A DNA stretch of 64,000 nucleotides, from contig JBBTUJ010000005.1 of NCBI GenBank assembly GCA_038063815.1, positions 4,875 through 68,874 on the forward strand, read 5' to 3'. Both the position numbers and the translations under genes were made by a program. Each line of letters begins with the position of its first letter. Position 1 is the first letter of the stretch. Below the pieces are notes generated by a model that was given only the letters and a program-made list of their open reading frames with translations, was not told the DNA's origin and did not search any database. This stretch comes from Patescibacteria group bacterium (GTDB lineage: Bacteria; Patescibacteriota; Minisyncoccia; Phycocordibacterales; EsbW-18). Shown here piece by piece: positions 15,079 through 62,270 of this stretch.

Positions 15079-15178
15079 GGTTGCATAAGTGAGTGAAAAA
15101 GGGAAAGCCGGACGCCAACTGCGCGCCCGGCTCAATTCTCCCCAAAGATCTGCTGACCCGAGCTCACTTAGGCCGTGG

Positions 15179-15667
15179 TTAGGCGATGCACATCCGGAGG
15201 AGAGGTGCGAACTTCTGGTTGCCGCTCAACGCAGCGATCTCACGGGCCTCGTCGAGCGTCATGAGACCAGCATTGACTGCCGCGACAAGAACAACCGCTT
15301 CATCGGCGTCCTCGGGGAGACCCGAGAATGCCATCACGAGGTTCTTAGCCGCACGAATCCCCCCGCCCCACTCGTTGCGTTCCGGATTGCGGCTCTCCGC
15401 GCTTGACCGAAGATTGTCCTGGATGATGCGCAAAACCTTCTCCACACAGTAGTCGACCGAGGGAGAGGTTGGTGGAACGTATCCTAGGCGCATCTTGAAG
15501 GGCATCCAGAGTTCCCCCCTCTTGTCTTTGCACCAGTTGAGAAAGAACCACCCCGCAATCTTCCTTCCCCTCTCGGAATCCTCGGTGAGACCATTCGCAA
15601 TGGCCACATCCAGGATCCGAGGGAGTGATCCGAGGATCTGACCCACGTGATCGAGCGTTGCGCGCAC
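15179..15667 (-). CDS. hypothetical protein (GC-rich islet inside the glycosyltransferase cluster)
   Basis: 162 aa ORF with a GTG start. The region is about 58-60% GC against roughly 45% neighbours. A GC hairpin plus U-tract lies downstream at about 15092-15131. No family recognised. Confidence 0.35.
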   Translation of the reverse strand: MRATLDHVGQILGSLPRILDVAIANGLTEDSERGRKIAGWFFLNWCKDKRGELWMPFKMRLGYVPPTSPSVDYCVEKVLRIIQDNLRSSAESRNPERNEWGGGIRAAKNLVMAFSGLPEDADEAVVLVAAVNAGLMTLDEAREIAALSGNQKFAPLLRMCIA

Positions 15668-15743
15668 CGTTGCACCAAACCTTTCCCCCCGATCAATGTC
15701 GGGGCTTGTCTAGACAAGATAATACGTAATGGGGAAGGTTATG

Positions 15744-16964
15744 TCAAATAACTTTCACAAAAACTTTTTCACGCATATCGCGCGCGACAGTGTCCCATCC
15801 GTATTTTACTCGAACCATCTCGCGCGCATTTTTTACAATCTTCTTGCGGAGTACATCATTCTCCATGAGCCGCACGACGGCACTTGCAATCGATTCGGGG
15901 TTTTTTACTTCACAAAACAATCCCGTCGGCGCTACCTTCCCCAGCGGGCTTTCGGGGTCTATCAAAAAATCGGGAATGCCACCGACGCGCGTTGCGACAA
16001 TTGGAATTCCGGCTGCCATTGCCTCAAGAAAACTCGAACCCATTCCTTCGGAGAGTGCTGGACGGACGAAGATGTCTGATACTTGGAGGTATGCGGGAAC
16101 GAGGTCTGTGTCTACTTGGCCGCAGAACCGCACGCGTTTTTGAAGTCCTTTGGACACGACTTCCTTCCACAATCGCTCCCCAAGAGGACCCGCGCCTAAA
16201 ACTAAAAATTTCACGCGCTCCGGCAATTTTGAAAGTGCTGCAATAACATCTCCAAGTGCATTCTTCTCAACAAGGCGTGATGTTGTCACGAGATATACTT
16301 CGTTCGGTTTCTTATTGAGGGCATAGATAAGTTTGTTTGTTTCTTTTGTATGCTTTGTACTTGCAAATCTTTCAAACTCAACTCCATTCGGAATAACAAC
16401 CGGCTCTCCGGGGTATCCCATGTCTTTTGCAAACTGTGCGAGATATTTTGAAATTGCCTGTACGACCGTTGCTTCAGTAAAAATGCGTTTCAAGAGTCCG
16501 GAAAAAAGACGGATGCGGCGGCGTTTCGTGATGTATTCCGTCGTGTCACCATCTTGGAGTGTCAAAATATACGGAGTCATATCCCGAAAAAATTTCCGCA
16601 ACAAAACCACGGGAAATCCCATATTTGTCATAAGAGACCAGTATGCATTGTAGGGTTTCCCCCGCGAAAGGGAGCACGCCTTCAAAACGGCGAGTGGCAC
16701 ATACAGAACCTTCACGAGATACCACGGGAAGCGGGAAAGATCTTCGAATGTAATCCCTTTTTTTGACGGGCCGATACGGTGAATCGTCACATTCCCAACC
16801 CTCTCAATACGTGGAAGGTTCGCGTCCGCGCGAAGAGCGATGAGGTCAAATTCTATCTCCTCCTTTGAGATCTGGTCCGTGATGAATCGCACGGCCATCT
16901 CCGCCCCACTCTCGTAGGGATGGTACATGAGAGAAAAGATGAGGATGCGCTTGGTTGCCATCAA
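15744..16964 (-). CDS. glycosyltransferase family 4
   Basis: EGMGSSFLEAMAAGIPIVATRVGGIPDFL. Confidence 0.8.
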   Translation of the reverse strand: MMATKRILIFSLMYHPYESGAEMAVRFITDQISKEEIEFDLIALRADANLPRIERVGNVTIHRIGPSKKGITFEDLSRFPWYLVKVLYVPLAVLKACSLSRGKPYNAYWSLMTNMGFPVVLLRKFFRDMTPYILTLQDGDTTEYITKRRRIRLFSGLLKRIFTEATVVQAISKYLAQFAKDMGYPGEPVVIPNGVEFERFASTKHTKETNKLIYALNKKPNEVYLVTTSRLVEKNALGDVIAALSKLPERVKFLVLGAGPLGERLWKEVVSKGLQKRVRFCGQVDTDLVPAYLQVSDIFVRPALSEGMGSSFLEAMAAGIPIVATRVGGIPDFLIDPESPLGKVAPTGLFCEVKNPESIASAVVRLMENDVLRKKIVKNAREMVRVKYGWDTVARDMREKVFVKVI

Positions 16965-16991
16965 GGCATCATACCATGCAGTTGTTTTGCT

Positions 16992-18341
16992 TCATGAAGA
17001 CGCTTCTGTCACCTCAATAATCGTGAACGCGTGTGCTGGCGGAAGGCCTGTACCTGAACCGACATCTTTTCTTGTTCTCTGCGTTGTCAAAAAACCAAGA
17101 AGAGCAAGGGTACTTACAATAAGCGTTCCGGCAAGAATATACGGCAACACGCTTTCTGTATGAGACGCTGTCGGAACAACTTCTTCAACATACCCAAGCA
17201 CCTTATTTTCTACTACGGCGTTTGGTTCGTATGTGGCGGCTTTTTTGCCACCGGGATAGAGAAGTTCTACGCGGTCCTCTTTTTGTGGCAAAAGTTCGGT
17301 TACTTCTTCAGGAAACTTCACTGCACTTCGAGGTGCGATCAGAGTATCATCAGGAAACGTGAATGTGTCTCGTGATTTGCTTCCTTTCTCGTACTCAATG
17401 TGTATCTGCCAGCGTGAAAGGTCGAGTTCCGTTTCCGCGCCGTTCGCGACCTCGATGTATCCGCCGTTTCCCCAATCAATGTCGCTTAAGCGGACTTCTG
17501 CTGGAACCGCCGTCACCATGAGCTTATCCTTCGCCCTTTGATTGTCTCCAGAGACATTGAGAACAACCGTATACGTGCCAGGTTTTCGATACGTGTGCGC
17601 TTCTTCTTTTCCTTTTCCCTTTCCACCATCTCCAAATGACCATGCGTAGTTCGCCGCGGAGATTCGTATGTTTTTATCGCTCACGCCATACCCCTCAAAC
17701 AACGCCTGTGCCCCAACCGTCACAAGACGGTCTTCACCTGCATAGGCAAAAACGACCTGCTTATATCCACCCGTTATTGTTTTCTTGGCAGTTGTGCTCG
17801 AGGAGCTCGAGGAAGAAGTAGATGTTCCCGCAACTTCTCCCCCGGTATCCTCCGTGCTGTTAATCGCCTTTGGTGTCGGAACGCCTGTTATCCACGTCCC
17901 ATCGGCCTGACGTTGAGCTGTGTGTTTTGTTGTGTTGTTTCCGCCGAGATTCTCCCAGTTCGCGCCGCCTGAGGCCGTATCGACGACAACACCATCTTTA
18001 TCGAGAATCTTCAATGTCTCGCCCGTATTTCCCAAATCGCCCGTATATATCTTGTCTGCAGGAATTCCAGAAACACTTTCATCGTCTGTCCGTTCAAGTA
18101 AATAATAGCCACTAGCGGATATCGAACCAGAAAGCGCTATTGACGGACTTCCATCCTCTGCGATAAGTTTCCACCCAGTGAGTGAAACGAGATCTGCGCC
18201 ATCGTTCACGATCTCAATCCATTCATCTGTTGCTGACGTTACAGTTCCCATCCAAGCAACTTCGTTTATAAAAAGGGCTGCAAATGTTTGCGTTGGTGCG
18301 AGCGCCACAAACAAAACAAAAAGAAAAAGCTTCCGTTTCAT
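16992..18341 (-). CDS. secreted/anchored surface protein with two lamin-tail domains flanking a PKD domain
   Basis: N-terminal signal peptide MKRKLFLFVLFVALAPTQTFA. LTD-like LFINEV...WIEIVN and RLSDIDW...YIEVANG segments. PKD-like WSFGDGG...HTYRKPGTYTVVLNVSGDN segment. Poly-Ser/Thr stretch TSTSSSSSSSTT. C-terminal TM helix. Confidence 0.7.
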   Translation of the reverse strand: MKRKLFLFVLFVALAPTQTFAALFINEVAWMGTVTSATDEWIEIVNDGADLVSLTGWKLIAEDGSPSIALSGSISASGYYLLERTDDESVSGIPADKIYTGDLGNTGETLKILDKDGVVVDTASGGANWENLGGNNTTKHTAQRQADGTWITGVPTPKAINSTEDTGGEVAGTSTSSSSSSSTTAKKTITGGYKQVVFAYAGEDRLVTVGAQALFEGYGVSDKNIRISAANYAWSFGDGGKGKGKEEAHTYRKPGTYTVVLNVSGDNQRAKDKLMVTAVPAEVRLSDIDWGNGGYIEVANGAETELDLSRWQIHIEYEKGSKSRDTFTFPDDTLIAPRSAVKFPEEVTELLPQKEDRVELLYPGGKKAATYEPNAVVENKVLGYVEEVVPTASHTESVLPYILAGTLIVSTLALLGFLTTQRTRKDVGSGTGLPPAHAFTIIEVTEASS

Positions 18342-18386
18342 GCGAAAACTCTATCTCATGCAAGATAAAGAGGCGTTAAAGAATAC

Positions 18387-20372
18387 TTACTTCTTTTCCC
18401 GGTCAAACAACTTTTTCAAAACGTGTTCAGGAACTTCAGGAAGTGCTTGTTTCTGTTGAGAAAGATTTGGCGCAGGGGGCACGGGGGCACTCTGGGCAGG
18501 TTTCGGTGAAGGATTCTGGACTGGCGGAGGTGGCGGTGTTTGTTTTACTTCCTGCTTCGGTGGCTGGGATTGTTGTGGTTGTTGTTGTGGTTGGACTTGA
18601 GGAGCTGGTCGTGATGAAGGAGTTTGTTGCACGGGTTCTCGCGGAACAGGGGTTATACCCTCATCCGGGGCAACAGGTTGCTGAAGGACTGCCGCCAACG
18701 CGTCGCGTAAATCTTTCAACCGCTCTTCTGACGGTCCTTTTTCTTTCTTTTGGCGCGCACGCTCTTCTTCTTTAAGGCGCGAAAGAGAAACAGCTTGCCG
18801 AACCCGATCTTCACGATTAGAGAAACCTTTTTGTTTTCCTTCTTCTTGACGGGGTTCTCTTCCCTCCGGAGGTTTTACAGGGCTTCTTTGCTCACTGCGG
18901 GGAATTCCGGACTCCTCTTTTCTCTCCGGTGGCCTGCCGCCACGTTGTTCTCCTCGAAAACTACCTCCACCTCGTTGACCACCACGATCTCCCGAAGAAC
19001 TACCCTCCCGGCGAGGCGGCGGAGCAGAACGCGTCTCAGAGCGTCCGCCGCCTCCTTCTCTTTCCTCTCTACCAAACACCTTTTCGTGCCACGTAATGAT
19101 ATCTTCTTCAACGGGACGTCGTGCTCGGGCAAATTGCTCACGTGAACGAGCGATGGCGACATCGCGGTACGAAACAGCTGGTGACGCGATAGGTCCCAGT
19201 GTTCGCGCGGAAAAAGGAGCAGACGACATACCATCAATCATAAGTTTGAGGTATACCTGCGCAAACCCGAGATTCACGAGATCTTCTGCGGTGAAGAGCG
19301 GTGCGAATTCTTTTTCGAGATACTCGGCGTCCGTCGCACCAACACGGAATGTAATCATCGTTCCGACGTTGCCGAAGACGGCGGCACGCACTTCGTCAGA
19401 CATCTGCTCGATGTACTGATGCGCCATCGTGAGATTCAATTTATATTTTCGCGCCTCCGAGAGGATGTCCGCAAAGGACTCGTTCGCAAATGATTGGAAT
19501 TCATCGACGTAGAGATAAAAGTTCGGCAGTTTATTGAGTTCATCCTCACGCAAGTCGGCGCGTGACATCGCGGCAAGGTAAATCTTTGTGATGAGCATCG
19601 AGCCCAAGAGATTCGCGCTATCTTCACCCACCTGCCCTTTCGAAAGGTTAATGATGAGGATCTTGCGCTGATCCATGATCTCGCGAATGTTAAAAGACGA
19701 TTTCGACTGGCCGACGATATTCCGAATGACAGGATTCGCAGTGAATTGTCCAACTTTGTTCTGGATTGCAGGAGTCGCTTCGGCTGCGAATTTATCGGTA
19801 TATCGTGCAAACTCATCTTCCCAAAATGACTTCACACCAGGGTCAGTCACCGACGCGACCACAGCGGCGCGAAATTCCCTGTCAACGAGCATCCGGTTGA
19901 TTCCCAAAAGCGTTGCGCCTGGGTACTCGAGAAGCGCCAGAATCGTATTGTTCAAAATATATTCCATGCGGGCTGACCACGCATCAACCCAGATTTTCTT
20001 AAATGCAGACATGAGACCCGCCGCAACAAGGTGACGTTTGTCCGGACCAATATCTTCCATCACGTTGAATGAAACCGGATTTGCAAGATCAAACGGTGCA
20101 AAATACACGACATCATTGATACGATGCTCGGGAATGTAGTCAAGAAGAAGGTCAGCGGTCTTGCCGTGCGGATCAATGAAGGCGAATCCTTCGCCGTTCT
20201 GGATATCCTGCACCGCCATGTTCTCAAGCAGAGTTGACTTACCGGTTCCGGTCTTTCCGATGACGTAGACGTGACGCGTCCGGTCCTTGGCTTTAATGCC
20301 AAATTTGACGAGTTTATTCCGGTGGTCGGTCTCGCCGATATATGTGATTCTGTTTGGATCAAAAGAACTCAT
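18387..20372 (-). CDS. soluble VirD4/TraD/TrwB-like (type IV coupling protein-like) P-loop ATPase with RGG/PQ-rich C-terminal tail
   Basis: Walker A VIGKTGTGKSTLL, FIDPHGK, Walker B YLYVDEFQ and ARKYKLNLTMAHQYIEQ. No N-terminal TM helices. About 250 aa low-complexity tail. Paralog of 46202-48943. Confidence 0.6.
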   Translation of the reverse strand: MSSFDPNRITYIGETDHRNKLVKFGIKAKDRTRHVYVIGKTGTGKSTLLENMAVQDIQNGEGFAFIDPHGKTADLLLDYIPEHRINDVVYFAPFDLANPVSFNVMEDIGPDKRHLVAAGLMSAFKKIWVDAWSARMEYILNNTILALLEYPGATLLGINRMLVDREFRAAVVASVTDPGVKSFWEDEFARYTDKFAAEATPAIQNKVGQFTANPVIRNIVGQSKSSFNIREIMDQRKILIINLSKGQVGEDSANLLGSMLITKIYLAAMSRADLREDELNKLPNFYLYVDEFQSFANESFADILSEARKYKLNLTMAHQYIEQMSDEVRAAVFGNVGTMITFRVGATDAEYLEKEFAPLFTAEDLVNLGFAQVYLKLMIDGMSSAPFSARTLGPIASPAVSYRDVAIARSREQFARARRPVEEDIITWHEKVFGREEREGGGGRSETRSAPPPRREGSSSGDRGGQRGGGSFRGEQRGGRPPERKEESGIPRSEQRSPVKPPEGREPRQEEGKQKGFSNREDRVRQAVSLSRLKEEERARQKKEKGPSEERLKDLRDALAAVLQQPVAPDEGITPVPREPVQQTPSSRPAPQVQPQQQPQQSQPPKQEVKQTPPPPPVQNPSPKPAQSAPVPPAPNLSQQKQALPEVPEHVLKKLFDREKK

Positions 20373-20420: not shown

Positions 20421-20461
20421 GAGCAAAAACGAAAGGCCGCCGTTCTCGCGAACGGCGACCA
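20421..20461 (-). terminator. rho-independent terminator after the 94 aa ORF
   Basis: Minus RNA reads GGUCGCCGUUC-GCGAG-GAACGGCGGCC followed by UUUCGUUUUUG. Confidence 0.5.
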
Positions 20462-20484
20462 CCGAGAGAAACGCGAACGACCGT

Positions 20485-20769
20485 TCAGTCGTCCGCACGG
20501 GATGTAACCGTCGCGCTAGGATTCCACACCCTGACGCTCGTCCATCCTCCCTCTTGGACAACGACAGCGGCCGACCATCCGGCCGTCCGGACGAACCCGG
20601 TGATCTCGTAGACCTGACCGACCGTTAGGTACGGACCGAGTTCGACTCGGGCAAATCCGTTGGTCTGAAGCTGGACGCTGATCGCGCCCAGCACCCGCGA
20701 CTTCGCCTCTTCATTCCAGGGAAACCACTTGCCTCCCTGGGTCTTCTCAACTTGTCCTAAGGTGACCAT
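20485..20769 (-). CDS. hypothetical small protein (GC-rich cassette)
   Basis: 94 aa, about 60% GC. SD GGGAGGAA lies 8 nt upstream of the ATG. An intrinsic terminator hairpin plus U-tract sits at 20421-20461. Confidence 0.45.
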   Translation of the reverse strand: MVTLGQVEKTQGGKWFPWNEEAKSRVLGAISVQLQTNGFARVELGPYLTVGQVYEITGFVRTAGWSAAVVVQEGGWTSVRVWNPSATVTSRADD

Positions 20770-20848
20770 CGTTTCTGTTCCTCCCGTAGGTTTGTACTGC
20801 TCGCTGAAAGGGATGGTACTCTTCGAGAAACACTCTGTCTAGAAAATA

Positions 20849-22110: not shown

Positions 22111-22157
22111 GTATACCCCAGCTGCTCACTTTTTTAAAAAATAGTGCTGGGGTATAC
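22111..22157. promoter_or_regulatory. 47 bp near-perfect palindrome in divergent intergenic region (operator-like)
   Basis: GTATACCCCAGCTGCTCACTTTTTT|AAAAAATAGTGCTGGGGTATAC, with 12 bp perfect outer arms. Confidence 0.4.
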
Positions 22158-22177
22158 CCCGCCGGACAAGGTTTTGA

Positions 22178-22525
22178 ATGAACGTTTTGGTGCAAGAACA
22201 CACTCTGATACACTCACTTCCAGACAGCACACTATGGGAAGGGGGCGTGGTGGAAAGAAATCCAAAAAAGCGAGTGCTCGATGCGGAGCAAGAAAGAGCG
22301 GCGATTCCGCCCCTGTGCGATTTCATCGACCACTACCTCGACCTCATGAACGAGAGGGAGTTGGTTGAATTTCTTGGCCGTTTCTATGGGAACGAAGCGG
22401 TGGAAGAAGAGATCGCGGCAATGGAGGTTGGGGACAAGGTCTACAAAGAGTACGTGCCGCATCTGAGGCGCGGTCCTCGGCCGCAAAACGGACACGACAC
22501 CGGGCTGAAAGTGAAAGGAGAGTAG
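22178..22525 (+). CDS. hypothetical small protein (GC-rich islet)
   Basis: 115 aa acidic ORF, about 58% GC. GGAAGGGGG lies upstream of the in-frame GTG codons. A second 66 aa ORF (22526-22726) follows, preceded by AAAGGAGAG. Both are weakly supported. Confidence 0.25.
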   Translation: MNVLVQEHTLIHSLPDSTLWEGGVVERNPKKRVLDAEQERAAIPPLCDFIDHYLDLMNERELVEFLGRFYGNEAVEEEIAAMEVGDKVYKEYVPHLRRGPRPQNGHDTGLKVKGE

Positions 22526-22784
22526 GTGCGGACAGAAATAGAAGTGAAGGTCACTCTCCGCTCGGTCGTAACCGAGCAGATGCGCCTGCGACACGGACTC
22601 GACAGGTCCACGTCTTCAGATGCATTGCGGGAAGCGTGGCGACTCGCCACGCTTCCGCCGGAGCAGTGGCCGGATGCGCTCCCATTTCCAACAACAAACC
22701 GTCACCAGCCGAACCCCAACCCGTAGCGAAAAACTCCCACAAAGGGATTACGACCTACCTGTGTCCATTCCAGGAGGTCGTTTT

Positions 22785-23471: not shown

Positions 23472-23580
23472 GAGAGTAGTGTACGAGTGTGTTCGTTAAA
23501 AACAAGTATGCCCGTCAAACCGAAACGCTTTACTCGAACCATAAAGAAGCGTAGAGTGACCGCGGAAAGGGGGTGCTTCC

Positions 23581-24084
23581 ATGACGGAGCACGTAAAGGT
23601 CAACGGGGCCAATGTCGTCATCGAAGGCCCCGACGAGACGTTCTTGCTTGAATTGGGTTCATACGGTCGTTGGATGCTTCCCGGCGGAGGCGTCGAACGG
23701 GCTGAGTTACCTGTACACGCGGGGATGGACGAGACCCTCGAGGAAACAGGACTCATCGTCGCCCAGGAAGACCTGCAACTGATTGCGCTCCTCGTGCAAA
23801 AAGTCGTCCGAGGTGGGCAAACCATACCAATTTCCGGCATCGTCGCTCTTTACCGTTGCGATAAGTACGATGGGAAACTCCCCACCGAACCCAATGACGA
23901 GGTGGTGGAGTGGAAGTTCGTAACCTTCGAGAGAGCGCTCGAGTTGTACCAGCAAGGAAAGCTGCTTCGAGGATACATGCGGATGTTAGTCATCTATGAC
24001 AACATTCGTCGAGGTCTTCTGAAGCCGGTCTACGAAGCTATCCTCGCCGACCAGGTACCCGTCCGCCCACAACTGTTCATCTGA
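23581..24084 (+). CDS. NUDIX hydrolase
   Basis: Nudix box GGGVERAELPVHAGMDETLEETG. SD GGAAAGGGGG. About 57% GC. Intrinsic terminator at 24111-24150. Confidence 0.8.
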   Translation: MTEHVKVNGANVVIEGPDETFLLELGSYGRWMLPGGGVERAELPVHAGMDETLEETGLIVAQEDLQLIALLVQKVVRGGQTIPISGIVALYRCDKYDGKLPTEPNDEVVEWKFVTFERALELYQQGKLLRGYMRMLVIYDNIRRGLLKPVYEAILADQVPVRPQLFI

Positions 24085-24110
24085 CATCGGTCCGCCGGCC
24101 GACACAACAG

Positions 24111-24150
24111 CGCGCATCCCTCGAGGAAGGGTGCGCGTCTTTCGTTTTTA
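24111..24150 (+). terminator. rho-independent terminator after the NUDIX gene
   Basis: CGCGCATCCCT-cgaggaa-GGGTGCGCG followed by TCTTTCGTTTTTA. Confidence 0.5.
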
Positions 24151-26432: not shown

Positions 26433-26593
26433 GACACCGAGATGATGTGAGCTCGAGCCCTCTACACCATGTGGTCCGAATGCCGCGCTTGTATGTATTC
26501 ATACACGCGAAAACGTATATATGCATACCCACGCAAGCAAGAGGCACTATACCAAAAAACCTATGTGTACTCAATGAAATGTGAAACCGCCAC

Positions 26594-26818
26594 CTACAAC
26601 TGGTGTAGGCGGCGGTGCTGCTCGTTCCCCCAGCGCAGAATCGCGCTGAGGAGAACGACGGCCAGGATGTAGATGAGCGCCGTGGCGCACATCACGAGCG
26701 CCTGACCAGCGCTCATCGTCGGCGTCGCCCCATGGAGCGGCGCCGACAAGTTTCCCAGAGCGTGGATGAACACCGACACTCCGGGGACTGAAAATCTGAT
26801 GACAAAACTGCTGATCAT
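26594..26818 (-). CDS. small hydrophobic protein (75 aa) with its own promoter, SD and terminators
   Basis: MISSFVIRFSVPGVSVFIHALGNLSAPLHGATPTMSAGQALVMCATALIYILAVVLLSAILRWGNEQHRRLHQL. Preceded by TTGACT-N16-TATAAT, then AGGAGGTG 6 nt before the ATG. About 62% GC. The ORF track's 115 aa version extends upstream through the promoter. Confidence 0.5.
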   Translation of the reverse strand: MISSFVIRFSVPGVSVFIHALGNLSAPLHGATPTMSAGQALVMCATALIYILAVVLLSAILRWGNEQHRRLHQL

Positions 26819-26837
26819 TGGCCACCTCCTGAGAAGC

Positions 26838-26865
26838 ATTATACCAGCACGTTTGTAAAAGTCAA
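26838..26865 (-). promoter_or_regulatory. sigma70-like promoter TTGACT-N16-TATAAT driving the small ORF
   Basis: Minus-strand sense reads TTGACTTTTACAAACGTGCTGGTATAATGC, followed by SD AGGAGGTG (26823-26830) and the ATG at 26818. Confidence 0.55.
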
Positions 26866-26881
26866 TACCCTGTGGGTAAGC

Positions 26882-26910
26882 AAAAACGGCCTTAGTTAGG
26901 GCCGTTTTTG
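26882..26910. terminator. bidirectional intrinsic terminator (A5-ACGGCC-loop-GGCCGT-T5)
   Basis: AAAAACGGCCTTAGTTAGGGCCGTTTTTG. It lies between the 16S 3' flank and the small-ORF promoter. Confidence 0.55.
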
Positions 26911-27257
26911 CGCTTTGCCATCCTCGCGGATGACCATACATGTGTCTTTTCTTTTGTTCCGTTCATACCGGTCTTTCCCGGCTTGTCCGATTGCTTTAAG
27001 GATATTCAATCATAATCCATCACGTACTCAATTGAGGTACATGATATCGACCGCCTTGATCAAGTATTCAAAAACTGAACACTCGACGATTTGTCATTGG
27101 ACAAAATCCACGAGCAGCTTCCGCTACCCGTGCCTTGTTACGCCTTAACCCTAGTCACCGAACTTGCCTTAGAACATGAGAACCATGTGCTTCGGGCATT
27201 CCCGGCTCCTTTGACTTGGCGGGCGGTGAGTACAAGGCTCGAGAACGTATTCACCGT

Positions 27258-27289
<32 letters not shown>

Positions 27290-27452
27290 ACTTCATGAGG
27301 TCGAGTTGCAGACCTCAATCCGAACTGAGGATGGCTTTCTAAGGATTGGCTCGGGATTACTCCGTCGCGACCTGTTGTACCACCCATTGTATCACGTGTG
27401 TAGCCCGAGGCATCAGAGGGACATGCTGACTTGGCGTCATCCCCGCCTTCCT

Positions 27453-27594
27453 CCCAGCACGAAGCGTACGATGTACGCTTCAAGTTAAAAGTTTGTAAAG
27501 TTATAAAGTTTATAAAGTATTTTTTGTATTCACTTTACGAACTTGATGAACTTTTTACTTTCTACTTGAAGCGCTTCACGCGCTTTGTGCTGGG
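27453..27594. repeat. 16S V7 (h40-loop) insertion containing a copy of the AT-rich dispersed repeat, flanked by GC palindromes
   Basis: CCCAGCAC...GTGCTGGG closes the stem. Inside lie GAAGCGTACGATGTACGCTTC and GAAGCGCTTC hairpins plus the AAGTTATAAAGTTTATAAAGT...GATGAACTTTTTACTTT repeat. Confidence 0.6.
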
Positions 27595-28511
27595 CGGTCT
27601 CGTCTGACACTTATAACAGACGATAGGGGTTGCGTTCGTTACCCCACTTAAGGGAACAGCTCAAGCCACGAACTGACGACAGCCATGCATCACCTGTCCA
27701 GCCGCCCGAAGGCTCGTAAAGTTTCCTCTACGATTCGTCTGGATGTCTAGCCTCGGTGAGGTTCTTCGTTTAGCATCGAATTAAACCACATGATCCACCG
27801 CTTGTGCGAGCCCCCGTCTATTCCTTTGAGTTTTAACCTTGCGGTCGTACTACCCAGGCGGATCACTTAACGCGTTAGCTTCGCCTCTCAGAGGGTCGAT
27901 ACTCCGAAAAGCTAGTGATCATCGTTTAGGGCCAGGACTACTGGGGTATCTAATCCCATTCGCTCCCCTGGCTTTCGTGTTTCAGCGTCAGATATATGCT
28001 AGTGTACTGCCTTCGCTTTTGGCGTTCCCCACGATATCAACGGATTTCACCCCTACACCGTGAGTTCCGTACACCCCTCATACTCTCGTAGTTGTACCGT
28101 TTCCCATGCGGATTTCTGGTTAGGCCAGAAGATTTGACACAGGACTAATACAACCGCCTACACACCCTTTACGCCCAATAATTCCGGATAACGCTCGGGG
28201 CTCTCGTATTACCGCTGCTGCTGGCACGAGATTAGCAGCCCCTTATTCATCGGGTACCGTCAAAATTTCTTCCCCGATAAAAGATCTTTACGTCCCGAAG
28301 GACTTCATCAATCACGCGGCGTCGCTCCGTCACACTTTCGTGCATTGCGGAAGGTTCTTGACTGCAGCCACCCGTAGGTGTCTGGACAGTGTCTCAGTTC
28401 CAGTGGTGGGGGTCAGGCTCTCACCTCCCCTACGCGTCATAGCCTTGGTAAGCCATTACCTTACCAACTAGCTGATACGAGGCAGGCCGTTCTAGAAGCG
28501 ATAAATCTTTA

Positions 28512-28646
28512 CCCGCACACTAACTTTGGCATTGTCTTCAGTACGCCGAGATCATTGTCACATTATCTGTGATAACTATTCGGGAATAACGATAATAAAC
28601 CTTCCACACAACTGCCTTCGGCGTAATGCCAAAGTTAGTGTGCGGG
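28512..28646. repeat. 16S V2 insertion forming a 22 bp perfect stem (CCCGCACACTAACTTTGGCATT / AATGCCAAAGTTAGTGTGCGGG), with a partial third copy at 28664-28690
   Basis: A perfect 22 bp inverted repeat encloses 91 nt, with an inner ACGCCGA/TCGGCGT extension. It is absent from E. coli-type V2. Confidence 0.65.
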
Positions 28647-29343: not shown

Positions 29344-29493
29344 GAATTGTCAAAGTCCATCAAAAACCCCACCTCAGCCAGTCACGGCCGAAATGGGGTG
29401 ACTAGTTGAATGGACCTCCATTATATTCATAGAAAGGATTGTGTCAAGTTTCAGTGAATCCCTTGCAAACGCCTTTATCTCGCCCTTTTCACT

Positions 29494-34814: not shown

Positions 34815-34822
34815 GGGCCGAC

Positions 34823-46201: not shown

Positions 46202-48943
46202 TTAGAGATGGTATTTTTCCCCAATTTCTCGCTCCACCTCAGCCCGAGGACGTCCATGGCGCTCAAATGATTCCCGGGCGAGTATTTCCGCGCGAGCACG
46301 ATCGAACTTCGGCGGTGATACCGTCTCAACATTAAAGGGACGTTCCGGGCGACCGTTTGAAAGAAGGCGCAAAAAGGCATTCCTGTTGTCGACGTTCATG
46401 AGATCAGATGCCGTGAACACCGGTGTGAATTGTTTCTCAAGGTACTCCGCGTCATCACTTCCGACACGGAACGCTGCAATTGAGCCCACGTTCCCAAAGA
46501 CCGCATCACGTATTTTTTCATCAAGTTGTTTGATGAACTGGTGAGCGACCGTCAGAGACAGGCGGTATTTCCGTGCCTCAGAGAGAATCGTTGCGATTGA
46601 ATCCGTCGTGACATTCTGAAACTCGTCGATGTAGAGGAAGAAGTCAGGCCGTTCTCCAGCTTCCGCATCAACACGCGAGAGTGATGCCATCAAAATCTTC
46701 CCGACAATGATGAGACCCAAAAGATTCGCATTGATGTCACCCAAGCGGCCCTTCGAGAGATTCACCAGAAGAATCTTCCGTTCGTCCATGATACGACGGA
46801 AGTCGAATGCGGACGTTTTTTGAACAACGATCGGACGCATGATGTCATTCGCGAGGAAGACATCGAATTTCGATGTTATGTAGGGCACAATGTTCGCGAG
46901 AGATGCTTCTCCTCCCGCTTTTTCCGCGACATCACGCCAGAATTGGACAATAATCGGGTTCTTGCAGCGAGAGAGCTTGAGCTCGCGATATGTTTTGTCA
47001 GACATCACACGCGACACGTCAAACAATGTGTTTCCTGTTTCTGGGTCCTCGATGACAAGCATCGTCGCATTCCGGAAATACTGCTCAAACATTGGGCCCA
47101 TCGATTCGGGAACTTTTCCGTAGAGTTTTTGGAAGATAGAAAAGAGCTCGTTCACCACGAACGTCTTCTGCTCCGGATGTGCTGGGTCATACTCGAGCAT
47201 ATTGAGCCCCATCGGACGGTCAACCTGCGAAGGGTCAAAATAAATGACATCATTTCGCCTCTCATCCGGCACGGCCGAGAGGATATCAAAAACGTCGTTC
47301 CCGTGCGGATCAATCATGCAAACCCCGTCGCCATTCGCGATATCTTGGACAATCATGTTCTTGAGTAACGTCGTCTTTCCTGTTCCCGTCTGACCAATCA
47401 CGTACAAGTGCCGCATGCGATCCTCCGGCGTAAAGAATATCTGTGTCTCTGCATTCCTGTATCGATTGATACCAAGCAAAACCCCCTCATGCGGAAGATC
47501 CACAGGGGCGGGCGCGCTTCCGGCCTTTGAACGCTTAAGCTCTCGGGACGATTCGACTCCCGTTGCAGGAAAGTGAAATACCGTTGCAAGTTCCCTGATG
47601 TTGAGAGGGAGTACGAGATCACTCTTGAAGTATCGATAGGTGAAGTCGCGAATGAACTCCTTAAGACCTCGCGAGGAGACACGTACAAATTTGAATTTAT
47701 TTCCCTTTCCCTCTTCAAACTGATTAAATGTTGCCTCCAGATCAGAAAGGATTACTTCACTTCGTGATTCACCACCCGAGGAAGCAAGGAGGCGGATATT
47801 CGTTTCAAGAACGGGGTGTGAAATTTTTTGTTTAATCGATTCAAGTGCAACGTCGTCAATGACTTTCTGCTCTTTTTCTTTTTCTTTCTCGTCCTTCTTT
47901 TTCGACACAAAAAACTCTTTGAACCCTTTGGCGATGTCTTTCACGACCGACTCGTCCGCAAGCGCCTTTTTGAGTTTCTCGCCTTTTTGGAGACGTGTGA
48001 TGACGCGTTTGTATTTCTCCGTATATGAATCGCCTGCGGGTTTGACGACGATTTGAAGCGCCGCCCCTTCTCCTACCCGTGAGAGTTTTGCAAAAGCGGA
48101 GAGTGTGATATTCAAAGGATCATAATCGAGTGTCTCAAATGTCTTCAGGGGAAAAGCGGCGGGGCGAAGAAGCGTTGCGAAGGAAGCCGCAACAGAACCG
48201 TCAGGAACAAAGACGTTGTAGTCGTTCTTTGTTTCAACAAGACGTGCCTGAGGAAAAATCGAGAGAAGTTGTTTTTCAAAGAGTTCTCGTTTTTCGACCG
48301 GTACCGCACAAAAAAGCGTTGCGTGCTCGTGACTCGCTTCTACGGCAAGTTCAAGCGTAAAGTATGCAGACCTCGAGGCCTGTGCCGCAACAGAAGAGAG
48401 TCCGGCGTAGAGTTGTTCCATTGACGAGAGAAGTTCTTTAAGCGGCCTTCGGTCTTCTTTCTCGCGCGCTCCAATAGGAAGAGAGACCTCGAAAAGCGTC
48501 ATGTGAAGCGCTTTCCACATCTCGGACTTTTGCGAAACACCATCTGCCGCGTAGCCCTCTTTCAGATATTCAGCAAGAAATCGGTGAAAATCGTCCGCAA
48601 GGTGTGGGTTGTCGAGTTTTGAGAGAACAGAGAGCGCGTTCCTGACACCTCTCTCGCGCATAATCGAGAGAAGTTCGCTTATCTGTTCATCGTGTTCCTC
48701 GGGCTGAAGATCAAGTACAATCGCGTCAATTTCGGGTTTAAGCATCGCATGACCTTTTTCAAGGACATGTTCCGGGTGGTGTTTTGTATATGCTGCAACA
48801 AGATTCTCGGCTGCCGCTTCGGGCCCGCTCGCTTCCGCAGATGTCATTCCTTTCTCAAGTTCCCGTAGACGCTCTCGCAAAAAAGTTGCCTCCTCGTCAG
48901 GTGTTTTGAATTTTGCTTCAGGCGTAACGCTGAATCGTTCCAT
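46202..48943 (-). CDS. VirD4/TraD/TrwB-like P-loop ATPase with about 480 aa unique N-terminal domain (paralog of 18387-20372)
   Basis: Walker A YVIGQTGTGKTTLL, MIDPHGN, Walker B FLYIDEFQ and ARKYRLSLTVAHQFIKQ. No TM segments. Confidence 0.6.
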   Translation of the reverse strand: MERFSVTPEAKFKTPDEEATFLRERLRELEKGMTSAEASGPEAAAENLVAAYTKHHPEHVLEKGHAMLKPEIDAIVLDLQPEEHDEQISELLSIMRERGVRNALSVLSKLDNPHLADDFHRFLAEYLKEGYAADGVSQKSEMWKALHMTLFEVSLPIGAREKEDRRPLKELLSSMEQLYAGLSSVAAQASRSAYFTLELAVEASHEHATLFCAVPVEKRELFEKQLLSIFPQARLVETKNDYNVFVPDGSVAASFATLLRPAAFPLKTFETLDYDPLNITLSAFAKLSRVGEGAALQIVVKPAGDSYTEKYKRVITRLQKGEKLKKALADESVVKDIAKGFKEFFVSKKKDEKEKEKEQKVIDDVALESIKQKISHPVLETNIRLLASSGGESRSEVILSDLEATFNQFEEGKGNKFKFVRVSSRGLKEFIRDFTYRYFKSDLVLPLNIRELATVFHFPATGVESSRELKRSKAGSAPAPVDLPHEGVLLGINRYRNAETQIFFTPEDRMRHLYVIGQTGTGKTTLLKNMIVQDIANGDGVCMIDPHGNDVFDILSAVPDERRNDVIYFDPSQVDRPMGLNMLEYDPAHPEQKTFVVNELFSIFQKLYGKVPESMGPMFEQYFRNATMLVIEDPETGNTLFDVSRVMSDKTYRELKLSRCKNPIIVQFWRDVAEKAGGEASLANIVPYITSKFDVFLANDIMRPIVVQKTSAFDFRRIMDERKILLVNLSKGRLGDINANLLGLIIVGKILMASLSRVDAEAGERPDFFLYIDEFQNVTTDSIATILSEARKYRLSLTVAHQFIKQLDEKIRDAVFGNVGSIAAFRVGSDDAEYLEKQFTPVFTASDLMNVDNRNAFLRLLSNGRPERPFNVETVSPPKFDRARAEILARESFERHGRPRAEVEREIGEKYHL

Positions 48944-49245: not shown

Positions 49246-52218
49246 CTACTTTAAGTTTTTTGGACCAAAAAAGTCTTTGCACAAGAGGCCGATGATAGAA
49301 GCCCAGAATCCTCCTGTTTGAGGAAAATTGTGCTTTTTCTTGTAGTCCGCCTCAAACGCAGACCGTGCCGTATTTCGTTGCTTACCAGCAGGCATTTTGT
49401 CCCATTTGACTGATTTTTTGTATGTCTCCCATTCCTCCTGAACACCCTCTTCGTCGGGAACAGCGTCGGAGAGCTCCGCGAGAGATACTCTTTTTACTTT
49501 CTCACCGCCAACAACCTTCTCTTTATAGAGCGCTGTCGTGAGCGCTTCGCGCATACGTGGGTCATCAGAGACAAGCGTCGCGATGAATGATCCATTCTCT
49601 TGCATGATACGCGCTCGCTCAGTTCGCAGTCCTTCAAACGTGTCGGCGTGTGCGGATGTCGCTTCCGCCGCACTACGTCTTCCAAAAAGCGTTACGGTTT
49701 TTTTAAACCATCCCATTTCCGAAGAAAATGCTGTACGAAGGGCTTTCTCTCGCTCAGCAGGATCGGTATTGCCCATTGCTTCTACAACGGCGGCAGGTGA
49801 CGAGAGGCCATATTTCGCACACATTTTTTGTATGGACTCATTTACGGGCGCAGCACTTTCCTCAATCTGGACAAGCTCATCATGCCTGCTCGCAAGCTCC
49901 TGAAACTCGTCCGGAGATGCAATCGCCTTATCAATGACTCCTGCTCGTATAATCTTTCGAAGCGCGGGGAGGCCAACAACAGATCGCAAATCTTCAAGCT
50001 CTTCGGAGTATAGTGCGAGTTCAGTAATCTCATCGTCGCTCAGTGCTTCGTTCAGTTTTTCTCCGCTTTCTTTTCGCTGAAGATACTCCTCTCGGTGTTG
50101 TGCGAGCTGTGTCATGTCATCTGGTTCGAGAGTGCGTGAAAGCATCCTTTCACCAAGTGCCGCCACCTCAGGATCTCCAAATGAGTCGAGCATCTGACCA
50201 AATTGTTCCGCCTCTTTTGCAAGGATATCGGCAAGGGTCGGCCTTGCGTCAACCTCTTCACGACGTGCGCTTCCTGCATCTTTCTGTTCTGCATACATTC
50301 TAAATGGATTTTCTGGACTCATGGGGTGTGTATTTTTAATAGTATATGAATTCGTATCTAGTGTACCTCGATGCCTAGGCGTGTCAATTCTGCCGGCAGC
50401 ACTAAGAGGTGTGCCCACCGATGGATTTCGTTTCCGTGTTGTTCGTTCTGTTTTTTTGGGCACTTCCGGTGGTTCTTCTGGAACAGTTTCGCTCGTCATC
50501 ACAACTGGTGGCGTGGTTGGTGCTGTTTCTGTCGAAACGATAGGCGGAGGAACCTCTCGTGTTGGCAGAACCGAATTATTTTCAGGTAACCCTGTGGTTG
50601 GTTGGTGTGGAGGTGTTTCCGATAAAGGGGTGACTTTTTTTGCTTCACCTCTTTGTGGCGCCTGTGATGGTGTTTTTGTTGATTCCGTATCAATAACGGG
50701 TACCTCCACAATGACAGTCCTTGATTTCTTTTCTCCCTTGAAAGAAATCTCGAGATTCCCGTTTTTAATTGTCACGTCATCAATTTGTTCTGGGTATTTT
50801 CCTTGAAGATGCTGTCGGATTTTTGGAATTAAAGATGGAAGGGCTGACTCAAGGGCCGGCTTAATAACAGCTCTTTTAAGAAAAGATGCGTCAATATCAT
50901 AACCCGCTACCGACAGCCCACGCCCACCACCCTGAATCCTCGCGGAAAGACCGAATGCGCCCGCAAGATTGTGTCGTAGCTTTGCCGTCAGGTCTATCGT
51001 ATTACTGTGTCCATTCACCAAAAGGGTGTCCACCGTGGCAAGTCCGCTTAGTAATGACTTAATTTCTAATTGTATCTCACTCGGCGTGAGTACAGCGTTT
51101 TCCCTTTTTACCATTTCCTCAACGACCCTCTCGACTTTTTGCGTCAGTGGCGTGGTTGGTGCTGTTTCTTTTTTACGAACCCGCGGTTGTTTTTGTGGAG
51201 CTTCCAGACCAATGACGGGCTTCGGGGTCTCAGTGCTTGGCGGTTGAACATTTTTGTTCTGAAATCGTTTAGCCCGCGACTCAACAGTCGCCGCGTCAGT
51301 AACCAATGACTCCATCCCAGAACGAACCCGTATGCTTTGCGCATCAAGAGATTCCTTACCTCCCGATTGCACCATAGCAACAGGCGAGACGGGCATCATT
51401 TCAACAATCCTTCGTAACTTTGCGGCGGACTCTCTTCTTTGCTCCACGGTGCTTTGGTCATCTGCAAAAACACGTGCAAGTTCTGGAATACTCCGTATGT
51501 ACCCGCGTATTTCAGCTCGTGCCTTTTTGGTACGCGTTGTATCCATCTCAAGTTTTTCGAGCATGTTGAGAGCATACCTCTCCGCAACAGATGGGTCAGC
51601 GATAATCGCATCGGTCTCGTATTTAAAATGGTGGGCAAGGTCTATTAACCTCTGCTTCTCCCTCCTTTCGGCGTTATCACGAACAGGGTGTTTCTGCGAA
51701 GAATTCGCCTTCTTGCTTTCTCCTCGTGTTTCTTGTTCAGATTTTTCTTTTTTACGAGGTTTTTCTGCAGGCCTTTCGGGAAGTGTGGGTGGTGGAAGTG
51801 CCACATCTTCCCTTCCGCCCGGTCTTCGGCGCTGGCTTTCTCTTCGTTCACTATCACGCGTACTCCTCTTGCGCGATGTTCTTTGACGATCAATCGACGC
51901 AGGCGCATCGCTTCCATACACTTCAAGTTCACTTTCGACGAGGGGTTCAGTGGGTTTTTCTTGCCTACTCTTTTCAACATGACGCACTGCCTCCAAGAGT
52001 GCTTCGGTAAACGTTGTCTGTTCGGACGTGAGCGTTGGCTGTTCTACCTCGACCGCTTGGGCAGCATCGATCGCATCTCTGAGATCTTGTTGTTGTTCGA
52101 GCGAAAGCGGCTTCACGTCAGCGTCAACTCCTTCCAAAGGTGTTTCTGCGCGATGCTCACTATCGTCCCCTCCCGGAACGTTTGGTGGTGGAAATTGATT
52201 AACATCTTCAGGACTCAT
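49246..52218 (-). CDS. large hypothetical protein (990 aa), largely charged/low-complexity with Pro/Thr-rich linkers
   Basis: A long uninterrupted ORF that starts 8 nt after the map stop. No TM helices and no recognisable domain. Confidence 0.55.
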   Translation of the reverse strand: MSPEDVNQFPPPNVPGGDDSEHRAETPLEGVDADVKPLSLEQQQDLRDAIDAAQAVEVEQPTLTSEQTTFTEALLEAVRHVEKSRQEKPTEPLVESELEVYGSDAPASIDRQRTSRKRSTRDSERRESQRRRPGGREDVALPPPTLPERPAEKPRKKEKSEQETRGESKKANSSQKHPVRDNAERREKQRLIDLAHHFKYETDAIIADPSVAERYALNMLEKLEMDTTRTKKARAEIRGYIRSIPELARVFADDQSTVEQRRESAAKLRRIVEMMPVSPVAMVQSGGKESLDAQSIRVRSGMESLVTDAATVESRAKRFQNKNVQPPSTETPKPVIGLEAPQKQPRVRKKETAPTTPLTQKVERVVEEMVKRENAVLTPSEIQLEIKSLLSGLATVDTLLVNGHSNTIDLTAKLRHNLAGAFGLSARIQGGGRGLSVAGYDIDASFLKRAVIKPALESALPSLIPKIRQHLQGKYPEQIDDVTIKNGNLEISFKGEKKSRTVIVEVPVIDTESTKTPSQAPQRGEAKKVTPLSETPPHQPTTGLPENNSVLPTREVPPPIVSTETAPTTPPVVMTSETVPEEPPEVPKKTERTTRKRNPSVGTPLSAAGRIDTPRHRGTLDTNSYTIKNTHPMSPENPFRMYAEQKDAGSARREEVDARPTLADILAKEAEQFGQMLDSFGDPEVAALGERMLSRTLEPDDMTQLAQHREEYLQRKESGEKLNEALSDDEITELALYSEELEDLRSVVGLPALRKIIRAGVIDKAIASPDEFQELASRHDELVQIEESAAPVNESIQKMCAKYGLSSPAAVVEAMGNTDPAEREKALRTAFSSEMGWFKKTVTLFGRRSAAEATSAHADTFEGLRTERARIMQENGSFIATLVSDDPRMREALTTALYKEKVVGGEKVKRVSLAELSDAVPDEEGVQEEWETYKKSVKWDKMPAGKQRNTARSAFEADYKKKHNFPQTGGFWASIIGLLCKDFFGPKNLK

Positions 52219-57646: not shown

Positions 57647-57812
57647 GAATAGTTGGTTGTAGGTCGTTGGTTGTCTGTTTTGCGACGACAGTCACAATAA
57701 AACACCTGCCTTTCTTGATACCCATGGATCACGCTGAGCGGGACCGGCTGGTATCTAAAGGCGGATAAGTCCCCCGCAAAGCGGGGCAAGCTCTCGAAAC
57801 GAAAGCCCAGCT

Positions 57813-57841
57813 ATCCTAGCAAAAAACGACCCCTCTGTCAA
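57813..57841 (-). promoter_or_regulatory. promoter-like TTGACA-N17-TAGGAT inside the rplE-rpsN spacer
   Basis: Minus-strand sense reads TTGACAGAGGGGTCGTTTTTTGCTAGGAT, directly after the L5 terminator. Confidence 0.4.
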
Positions 57842-57844
57842 AAA

Positions 57845-57880
57845 CGAAAGTCCGCTCCCTTGCGGAGCGGACTTTCACGT
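57845..57880 (-). terminator. rho-independent terminator immediately after rplE
   Basis: Minus RNA reads AAAGUCCGCUCC-GCAA-GGGAGCGGACUUU, a 12 bp perfect stem, followed by CGUUUUUG. Confidence 0.6.
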
Positions 57881-57882
57881 TC

Positions 57883-59187: not shown

Positions 59188-59189
59188 AA

Positions 59190-60863: not shown

Positions 60864-60890
60864 AAATAATAGAAGTGAGAGGGTTTGAAG

Positions 60891-61277: not shown

Positions 61278-61280
61278 GGT

Positions 61281-61736: not shown

Positions 61737-61895
61737 GGATGTTGAACAAAAAGAGCCCCAGTGGCTCGCAAAGTATCGTAGCAAAAAATAAGGAAATGTA
61801 AACCCCTACCACAACATCCTGACTAAACACTCGGTGTCCGGTCAAACTGACCGGACACCGAGTGTTGCACGTACCGATGTAATGTCTGTAAAACC

Positions 61896-61924
61896 TTGTG
61901 GAGGTGTGCAAAACGAGGTATAGT
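61896..61924 (+). promoter_or_regulatory. plus-strand promoter-like TTGTGG-N17-TATAGT inside the rplB-rpsS spacer
   Basis: TTGTGGAGGTGTGCAAAACGAGGTATAGT. It would drive the antisense 66 aa minigene. Confidence 0.4.
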
Positions 61925-62006
61925 TTTTGTTGGGCACAGTTCTTTGTTTTTTGTAGTTTGGAATCACCTTTTCCGCATGGAGCGGAAGGGTTCGCAGGAG
62001 AAGCAC

Positions 62007-62207
62007 ATGAAGGATGCGGAGCGGAACGAAACCGACCAGCCATGCCTTTGCGAAAAGAGTCACGCCGTCATGCAGCGGCATGGCAAACCGACCGAGGTTC
62101 GAATTCTGAGCCTCAGCCACCGCAGAGGAACTGCCTGCGTCCGACCGCTCAAGGGAGCGTCGGGGACACTGGTCGTCTCAATCGCTGCCCTCGTCGCTCT
62201 CACGTAA
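62007..62207 (+). CDS. hypothetical small protein (66 aa) encoded antisense within the rplB-rpsS spacer
   Basis: MKDAERNETDQPCLCEKSHAVMQRHGKPTEVRILSLSHRRGTACVRPLKGASGTLVVSIAALVALT. SD AGGAGA lies 5 nt upstream. About 60% GC. A promoter sits upstream and an intrinsic terminator at 62241-62270 downstream. Confidence 0.4.
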   Translation: MKDAERNETDQPCLCEKSHAVMQRHGKPTEVRILSLSHRRGTACVRPLKGASGTLVVSIAALVALT

Positions 62208-62240
62208 CACCCCCCCTCGCACTACCCCCCACCCCCCGAA

Positions 62241-62270
62241 GGCGCCGCAAGTAGTACGCGGCGCCTTTTC
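62241..62270 (+). terminator. plus-strand intrinsic terminator (GGCGCCGC-loop-GCGGCGCC-TTTTCTC)
   Basis: 8 bp GC stem, 9 nt loop and a T-tract, 34 nt after the stop of the 66 aa ORF. Confidence 0.5.

Follow-up and report, generated by a model that had tools for sequence, protein, structure and literature searches.

The 64,000-nucleotide stretch examined here (the 'window') belongs to the 102.7-kb contig JBBTUJ010000005.1 of a metagenome-assembled genome from the Hainich groundwater wells (GenBank assembly GCA_038063815.1, locus tags AAB460_), and it carries six small loci, designated A to F, that are markedly richer in GC than their surroundings. The initial annotation described these loci, together with a radical-SAM (rSAM) gene, as a family of minigene cassettes and possibly an uncharacterised class of insertion cassettes. 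We conclude with moderate confidence that they are instead unrelated small stand-alone accessory genes from the flexible gene pool of Paceibacteria, within the candidate phyla radiation (CPR), and that no single element family unites them. On this reading, each unit would combine one small open reading frame (ORF) and its brief leader with a promoter-like box in front and an intrinsic terminator behind. Such units would fill a few permissive intergenic slots that in relatives would be either empty or occupied by unrelated small genes, and slot content would turn over by recombination with end points at the unit edges, with no dedicated insertion machinery.

All six ORF loci lie where the initial annotation had placed them. 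Locus A (unit 15105-15747, minus strand) holds an ORF of 162 amino acids (aa; 15179-15667) between two GT4 glycosyltransferase genes, and locus B (20435-20841, minus strand) holds a 94-aa ORF (20485-20769) between a DUF4015 gene and a VirD4/TrwB-like ATPase gene. The junction between the RsmI and DUF4015 genes is occupied by locus C (22111-22726, plus strand), which consists of two ORFs called by PGAP, C1 (115 aa, 22178-22525) and C2 (66 aa, 22526-22726). Locus D (23529-24149, plus strand) encodes a 167-aa NUDIX hydrolase (23581-24084), while locus E (26573-26911, minus strand) places a hydrophobic 74-aa ORF (26594-26818) with a predicted transmembrane stretch in the spacer between the 16S rRNA and tRNA-Ile genes. 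Finally, the 589-bp rplB-rpsS junction carries locus F (61775-62309, plus strand), whose 66-aa ORF (62007-62207) is called neither by PGAP nor by Prodigal. An identical window sequence was recovered in several independent assemblies (ENA, Logan, NCBI), and thus the loci are not assembly chimeras.

The host is a Paceibacteria-like CPR lineage. When GTDB species genomes were scanned around RsmI, 54 related loci were obtained (given L numbers below), and those at 48-66% RsmI identity are nearly all labelled as Paceibacterota, Parcubacteria, Taylorbacteria, Nomurabacteria or other candidate phyla; the nearest relative among GTDB species has an RsmI protein that is 66% identical. These relatives share a conserved gene order: 16S - tRNA-Ile ... 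RsmI - DUF4015 - VirD4/TrwB-like ATPase - (LTD/PKD protein) - GT4 - GT4.

The GC contents of the loci are 0.589 (A), 0.607 (B), 0.537 (C1), 0.612 (C2), 0.554 (D), 0.613 (E) and 0.607 (F), and GC content at third codon positions (GC3) is 0.63-0.81 compared to about 0.38-0.53 in adjacent genes. The initially reported genomic background of roughly 47% GC is too low, given that the window as a whole measures 49.2%. Other spacers of at least 100 bp in the window have GC contents of 0.27-0.52, mostly below 0.48, and GC enrichment is thus not a general property of intergenic DNA here. The loci accordingly show the atypical composition expected of genomic islets (0.54-0.61 against 0.49 window-wide).

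One might suspect that the pattern is compositional noise combined with selection by eye. There are 18 separate 200-nucleotide (nt) peaks in the window with a GC content of at least 0.585, and about half of these fall within ordinary genes (VirD4-like, ABC transporter, ribosomal protein), indicating that the first list was partly selected. However, the islands themselves are genuine, because whole ORFs are outliers in both GC and GC3, with edges that coincide with ORF borders, and the surrounding spacers are AT-rich. A link between leader sequence and GC3, described below, is moreover significant and is replicated in independent genomes, and we consider noise to be a highly improbable explanation.

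Most of the loci do have the expression signals ascribed to them, namely a promoter-like box, an SD-like (Shine-Dalgarno-like) tract of canonical type and an intrinsic terminator. Shine-Dalgarno (SD) cores of at least 5 nt precede B (GGGAGGAA, 20778-20785), C2 (AAGGAG), E (AGGAGGTG, 26823-26830, a perfect 8-nt match at ideal spacing), F (AGGAG, 61996-62000) and the rSAM gene, whereas the leaders of A (GGGGGGAAAGG, 15680-15690), C1 and D (GGAAAGGGGG, 23564-23573) offer only G-rich purine tracts. Downstream of A (15105-15133), B (20435-20460), D (24110-24149), E (26573-26617) and F (62239-62275) there are intrinsic terminators, and a second one lies upstream of E, after the 16S gene (26880-26911). 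Strong promoter-like boxes, each matching 11 of 12 positions, are present at A (TTGACA-17-TATTAT, 15719-15747) and at E (TTGACT-16-TGgTATAAT, 26838-26865, including the TG element). Locus D has the box TTTACT-17-TAGAGT (23529-23557) and B a weak one (20813-20841), but the plus-strand promoter proposed for F falls below our criterion of 9 of 12 matches. Host operons likewise carry native intrinsic terminators, one after rplB (62282-62309) and another after rplE.

To relate leaders to composition beyond the chosen loci, we used an automatic ORF set in which a GC3 outlier was defined as exceeding the median of its locus by more than 0.12, and scored each ORF for a G-containing purine tract upstream. 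Within the window, SD-like leaders occur at 5 of 10 GC3 outliers and at 4 of 66 other genes (p = 0.0013). The same association is evident in the relatives (10 of 49 versus 57 of 698, p = 0.008), including when only their ORFs of at least 100 aa are considered (8 of 29 versus 42 of 556, p = 0.0017). Because the motif occurs at the same frequency of 9% inside the genes of each class, the enrichment is not a consequence of composition. Ribosomal protein genes, which had been described as devoid of SD motifs, indeed have neither a purine tract nor an unusual GC3. Three further small ORFs in the window that have no Pfam match are also GC3-rich: those at 7679-7939 and 4707-5141 on the minus strand (GC3 0.63 and 0.59) have G-rich purine tracts upstream, and that at 45184-45672 on the plus strand (0.61) does not.

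The SD-like leaders are peculiar in view of the 16S rRNA of this organism. The window shows a single rRNA operon, and an Infernal alignment to RF00177 reveals that the 3' tail of its 16S gene (27096-28852, minus strand) reads GGAUUUUGUCCAAU at 27096-27109, where the bacterial consensus is GGAUCACCUCCUUU, and hence lacks the canonical anti-SD. The CCUCC element is likewise missing from the 16S 3' end of the nine relatives in which this end falls inside the fetched loci (L008, L010, L012, L017, L020, L025, L041, L042 and L049), and their tails mostly read GGAACAUAUCCAAU. Anti-SD loss has been published for a subgroup of Parcubacteria (Tsurumaki et al., 2022, RNA 28:1041, PMC9297842), and the loss seen here explains why this genome is poor in SD motifs, as had been noted initially, and its core genes have none. 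The part of that paper on which we draw reports the rRNA feature only and makes no mention of a minority of SD-bearing, GC3-rich genes; a full-text literature search found no other paper on such a minority in anti-SD-less genomes.

Leaders of core genes pair with the canonical anti-SD more weakly than do shuffled leaders (+1.26 kcal/mol, p = 1e-6), and they avoid pairing with the tail of the host 16S rRNA as well. A modified SD:anti-SD pair, in which CA-rich leaders would be recognised by the U-rich 16S tail, can be rejected since such leaders pair worse than shuffled ones in both the window and the relatives. In contrast, the eight leaders of the GC-rich set reach -10.9 kcal/mol with the canonical anti-SD against -7.4 kcal/mol for shuffled leaders (p = 0.195 for this n = 8 test alone), and show no pairing beyond shuffles with the tail that the host actually possesses. 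The leaders of the GC-rich set are complementary to an anti-SD long since lost from the host lineage, and core genes avoid pairing of this kind. From this we infer that the units have their ultimate origin, or circulate, in a gene pool that is richer in GC and relies on SD sequences.

The distribution of the loci among relatives is consistent with an accessory character. Of the six loci, only D is present at the corresponding position in relatives, except that B has an allele at the same locus. No tblastn match to A, B, C or E was found in the syntenic regions of up to 54 genomes, and none of 80 loci that bear rplB contains a match to the F ORF. Three of the junctions concerned are tight in most relatives. 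The GT4 pair whose genes are separated by the 609-bp A slot is adjacent in 21 of 23 relatives, and the slot in L069 is occupied by three different, unrelated ORFs. The RsmI-DUF4015 junction, usually about 70-220 bp long in relatives, is expanded by locus C. More than 60 distant bacteria were compared for the rplB-rpsS junction, which measures 0-30 bp in most of them, but in 6 of the 10 closest relatives it is 150-2261 bp long and contains unrelated, often antisense ORFs. The other two slots are spacers that house dissimilar ORFs in relatives. In relatives, the gap between the DUF4015 and VirD4 genes ranges from 30 to 1254 bp and contains unrelated small zinc-ribbon or membrane ORFs, and these were rejected as diverged orthologues of B because they show no similarity to it. 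The 16S-tRNA-Ile spacer is long throughout the clade (367-3651 nt) and varied in content.

Comparisons with near-identical strains reveal that units and flanks can have different histories. In strain contig L002, C1 and D together carry no single-nucleotide polymorphisms (SNPs) in 852 bp, whereas the flanking DUF4015 and RsmI genes carry 27 in 1592 bp. Overall, core genes on either side of C1 and D diverge by 1-2.6% between strains in which these two units are identical. Otherwise, the strain contigs are too nearly identical for informative ratios of nonsynonymous to synonymous substitution rates (dN/dS) to be derived for A, C1, D or E.

Locus B provides the clearest case of such decoupling. 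A full HMMER search of 1.84 billion representative proteins returned a single true homologue, P0012 (76% identity, 93 aa), which comes from another Hainich well (locus L071) and sits in the same context between DUF4015 and VirD4 genes. The two alleles differ by a dS of 0.72 and one in-frame codon indel, and yet the terminator and downstream flank are about 99% identical, indicating that the history of B is decoupled from that of its flanks. Their dN/dS of 0.22 establishes B as a real gene under purifying selection. A G-rich tract is retained in each allele (GGGAGGAA in one, AGGGGGAA in the other), as is a GC content of 61-64%. Beyond its allele B has no homologue in that database, and neither phage tblastn nor an IMG/VR scan produced a match; a similarity to an oyster ankyrin-repeat protein was discarded as a repeat artefact.

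Locus D is the only one that yielded a match in Pfam, PHROGs, NCBIfam, PADLOC or PDB sequence searches. It is assigned to the NUDIX family by its PF00293 score of 41.8 bits (E = 1.3e-10), the gathering threshold being 21.1. We found only three homologues in databases, at 55-63% identity, and tblastn matches to D were confined to closer relatives outside the initial 54 syntenic loci. Two of the three, in L069 (63%) and L070 (56%), are syntenic orthologues in the order RsmI, NUDIX, NTP_transferase, and the third (55%) lies on the 718-bp contig L072. All four NUDIX sequences retain a purine-rich SD-like tract 7-14 nt upstream, an intrinsic terminator and a GC3 of 0.65-0.80, the three homologues spanning 0.67-0.80, and a promoter-like box is recognisable in three of the four; by comparison, the genes adjoining the NUDIX gene in L069 have a GC3 of only 0.45. 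Syntenic orthologues that share its signals and its excess of GC3 identify D as an old resident and not an insertion. At least B and D, therefore, are long-term residents under purifying selection and not fresh imports.

These observations qualify the proposal that the loci reflect repeated acquisition of foreign genes, perhaps from a GC-rich partner organism. Absence from syntenic regions (A, B, C, E and F) and leaders that fit a lost anti-SD favour acquisition, whereas recent acquisition fails for D, with its syntenic orthologues, and is doubtful for B, whose one homologue is a much diverged allele from its own locus and aquifer. No partner organism emerges as donor, given that A has no homologue, B has only its allele and the host's own relatives vary widely in composition, locus GC within one syntenic clade (L005-L058) ranging from 32% to 63%. 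No phage or viral matches were obtained (tblastn against phages for A and B; IMG/VR for A, B, C1 and E). Recent import from such a partner is in any event insufficient, because the signature of B and D has persisted over long residence.

Several points weigh against even the broader view that the units are accessory genes connected to a GC-richer, SD-using pool. First, B and D have retained their GC3 and SD-like tracts through a dS of 0.72 and across four homologues, respectively. A foreign signature should have ameliorated over such spans, and selection or a recombination-linked GC bias therefore fits as well as foreign origin. Second, pairing of the small set of GC-rich leaders with the canonical anti-SD is not significant on its own. 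Third, a search of 5.8 billion proteins yielded neither a donor nor a homologue of A, and B has none beyond its allele; together with D, these are the loci covered by the large-database homology searches. Fourth, E and C2 are exceptionally rich in hairpins and F is uncalled, and some of the 'genes' may be RNA or spacer. Finally, the relatives at hand are either distant (at most 66% RsmI identity among GTDB species) or near-identical strains, which makes the timing of gains and losses coarse.

The first of these points can be turned into an alternative, in which the units form a native and selectively maintained gene class whose SD-like leaders and high GC3 are functional, for example in mRNA stability or in initiation that bypasses the 16S tail. 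The signature of this monocistronic minority would then denote a regulatory or translational class and say nothing of foreign origin. The conserved tract, terminator and GC3 of the four NUDIX homologues are what this alternative would predict, as are the composition and tract shared by the two diverged B alleles and the recurrence of SD-like leaders among GC3 outliers across relatives. However, the leaders pair with the host 16S tail no better than shuffles do, and we know of no mechanism by which GGAGG could be recognised without an anti-SD. Both attributes are missing from the ribosomal protein genes, for which high expression can be presumed, and A, C, E and F lack orthologues that could reveal conservation. 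We consider a native class unlikely. GC-biased gene conversion, which Lassalle and colleagues reportedly described in 2015 for recombining bacterial genes, would raise GC3 in loci that recombine often and fits units that are decoupled from their flanks, but it leaves the SD-like leaders unexplained.

The idea that the loci constitute a single family, or a novel type of mobile insertion cassette sharing one mode of integration, fared poorly. It is encouraged by the shared promoter-SD-ORF-terminator architecture at operon junctions and by the reuse of slots in relatives. However, when each locus was compared with the window by sensitive blastn, no DNA proved to be shared among the loci or with any other part of the window, and all-versus-all blastp, including GC-rich orphan ORFs from relatives, detected no similarity among the products. 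There are no terminal inverted or direct repeats at the loci, only internal hairpins. A search for attC-type sites (R''-N40-130-R' with RYYYAAC/GTTRRRY cores) gave 2 matches in the 64 kb, none in the loci, against 4-11 expected by chance, and no integrase, transposase or recombinase is evident among Pfam-scanned window ORFs or in precomputed annotations. In addition, D is vertically inherited, the terminators are ordinary host features, and inserts in the corresponding slots of relatives are not generally GC-rich. A common cassette mechanism is thus largely refuted, and we give it almost no credence.

Comparison with known systems leads to the same place. Like integron gene cassettes, these are small single-ORF units with an inverted repeat after each; unlike them, they have their own promoters (the sigma-70-like boxes of A and E), are scattered, and end in GC-rich stems followed by T-runs, which are terminators, with no R''/R' cores, intI or array. 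None of the features of transposable elements, miniature inverted-repeat transposable elements or insertion sequences applies, there being no terminal repeats, multiple copies or transposase. The closest resemblance is to genomic islets, with which the loci share atypical composition, absence from relatives in the case of A, C, E and F and, its allele aside, of B, reused slots with varying content, allele and flank genealogies that disagree, and the lack of dedicated mobility genes. They differ in that the units are very small (0.3-0.7 kb with one ORF each) and GC-richer than the host, carry canonical SD motifs in an anti-SD-less host, and, for B and D, have kept this signature over long residence. 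Acquired DNA is usually AT-richer than its host. We conclude that the loci are a well-documented example of flexible ORFan islets and not a new type of mobile element.

A different concern is whether all six loci are protein-coding genes. Specifically, E, C2 and F might be non-coding GC-rich hairpin clusters or small RNAs within spacers, for instance structures in which rRNA/tRNA and ribosomal protein transcripts are processed or terminated, with ORFs that are by-products of stop-poor sequence. The E region is a run of near-perfect palindromes with a fold z-score of -7.45, and its ORF alone folds similarly on both strands (-4.8 sense, -5.5 antisense). C2 has z-scores of -3.9 (plus strand) and -3.5 (minus strand), a perfect 13-bp hairpin (22630-22656), and a patch of non-synonymous polymorphism (22664-22691) with two haplotypes that differ by seven clustered substitutions and a 3-nt deletion in the otherwise identical contigs L002 and L059. 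F is uncalled, and by our own calculation a 74-codon ORF has about a 10% chance of arising per frame at 61% GC.

Several observations count against this possibility. E exhibits strong codon periodicity (GC of.59/.44/.81 at codon positions 1, 2 and 3), together with its perfect SD at ideal spacing and 11/12 promoter. Only the 16S rRNA, tRNAs and tmRNA pass the Rfam thresholds, the best scores within the loci being far lower, and F folds in an ordinary manner (z = -1.45), although its periodicity is weak (.64/.49/.69). Furthermore, relative L041 has an E-like layout at about 330-740, with a post-16S terminator, a perfect TTGACA-17-TATAAT promoter, an 81-aa membrane ORF and a terminator, all of unrelated sequence. 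Non-coding status for these three loci is quite unlikely. E has the look of a small membrane protein, as F perhaps has too. Both loci, although F less clearly so, resemble type I toxins in being stand-alone small hydrophobic ORFs in intergenic regions with a strong promoter, SD and terminator. However, at 74 aa E exceeds the typical toxin length, a promoter scan of the window revealed no antisense promoter for an overlapping small RNA, no repeats were found, and protein-family searches, a viral scan and the syntenic loci of relatives yielded no homologue of E.

The remaining loci show more conventional coding character. The GC values of A at the three codon positions (.62/.44/.71) are of a coding type, and the ORF is predicted by both gene callers, although an alternative start from Prodigal, at 15493, shortens it to 104 aa. 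No homologue of A was found in Pfam, PHROGs, NCBIfam, PADLOC or PDB sequence searches. AlphaFold2 models of A and B have mean predicted local distance difference test (pLDDT) scores of 48 and 43, respectively, and with scores this low a search for similar folds was not warranted. C1 appears protein-like. An antisense 120-aa ORF at 22232-22594 was rejected as a true gene, being a frame -1 shadow that shares codon position 2, with junk-like composition and no call. In the 5' part of C1 (about 22233-22250), the cluster representative P0004 (96 aa) starts with MGRGVVE, which fits the gain or loss of a single base in a run of five G (G5) with a consequent shift of the N-terminus, and this could reflect either a sequencing error or a variable homopolymer. 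The 47-bp palindrome reported beside locus C is present at 22111-22157 and has 12-nt arms.

Around F, the junction holds a promoter-like box for rpsS on the minus strand (61775-61802) and a perfect 19-bp hairpin (61826-61866). The spc operon is also split, as indicated by a strong intrinsic terminator (57840-57876) in the 236-bp rplE-rpsN spacer (57647-57882). This spacer has the lowest fold z-score (-9.2, plus strand) of a whole-window scan that used 12 shuffles per window and is noisy (sd 1.66), serving as background only.

Other features of the rRNA region and its surroundings deserve mention. The 16S-tRNA-Ile spacers of L008, L010, L012, L015, L020, L025, L042 and L049 contain a conserved Arg-rich ORF-like element of about 50 aa, on the strand opposite the rRNA and missing from the window, with the motif HRGTTRE...RRHRNKxRIWRRAVxRL (43-65% identity by tblastn, no Pfam match); it may be a protein or an RNA element. 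The 16S gene has two insertions relative to relatives, at about 28515-28683 (about 170 nt) and 27456-27591 (136 nt), with strongly negative z-scores in the scan. At the tip of helix 44 (27173-27189), strain contig L064 has a wholly different sequence that resembles a compensated hairpin swap. A 30-bp inverted repeat (93%) at 26936-26965 and 28879-28908 flanks the gene and is the expected pre-16S processing stem, and a perfect TTGACA-16-TATAAT promoter lies upstream (29420-29447). Further along, a tRNA-Ile gene with anticodon UAU (34750-34822) is followed without a gap by a 386-aa ORF (34823-35983) with weak glycoside-hydrolase-like Pfam matches. The window contains two VirD4/TrwB-like coupling-protein ATPase genes (18387-20372 and 46202-48943), the second of which precedes a 990-aa ORF without a Pfam match (49246-52218).

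A bolder reading of the match between the leaders and a canonical anti-SD, which we offer only as a long shot, is that anti-SD-less Paceibacteria maintain a discrete, stand-alone, GC3-rich minority of genes that keep canonical SD leaders under selection, as the four NUDIX homologues and the two B alleles would exemplify. If true, this would imply either SD-recognising initiation without the 16S tail, or units built for expression in a host or partner cell whose ribosomes use SD sequences, reached for example by transfer through the adjacent VirD4-like machinery.

CPR bacteria are reduced, uncultured episymbionts whose means of gaining and expressing new genes are little understood. Our findings indicate that small accessory genes are gained and replaced at a few permissive junctions, including the rRNA spacer and the S10 ribosomal protein operon, and that they differ from core genes in both composition and translation signals. 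If the SD-like leaders are functional, they would be of direct relevance to translation initiation in lineages that lack the anti-SD. If they are relics, they would provide a simple marker of foreign or flexible genes in anti-SD-less genomes.

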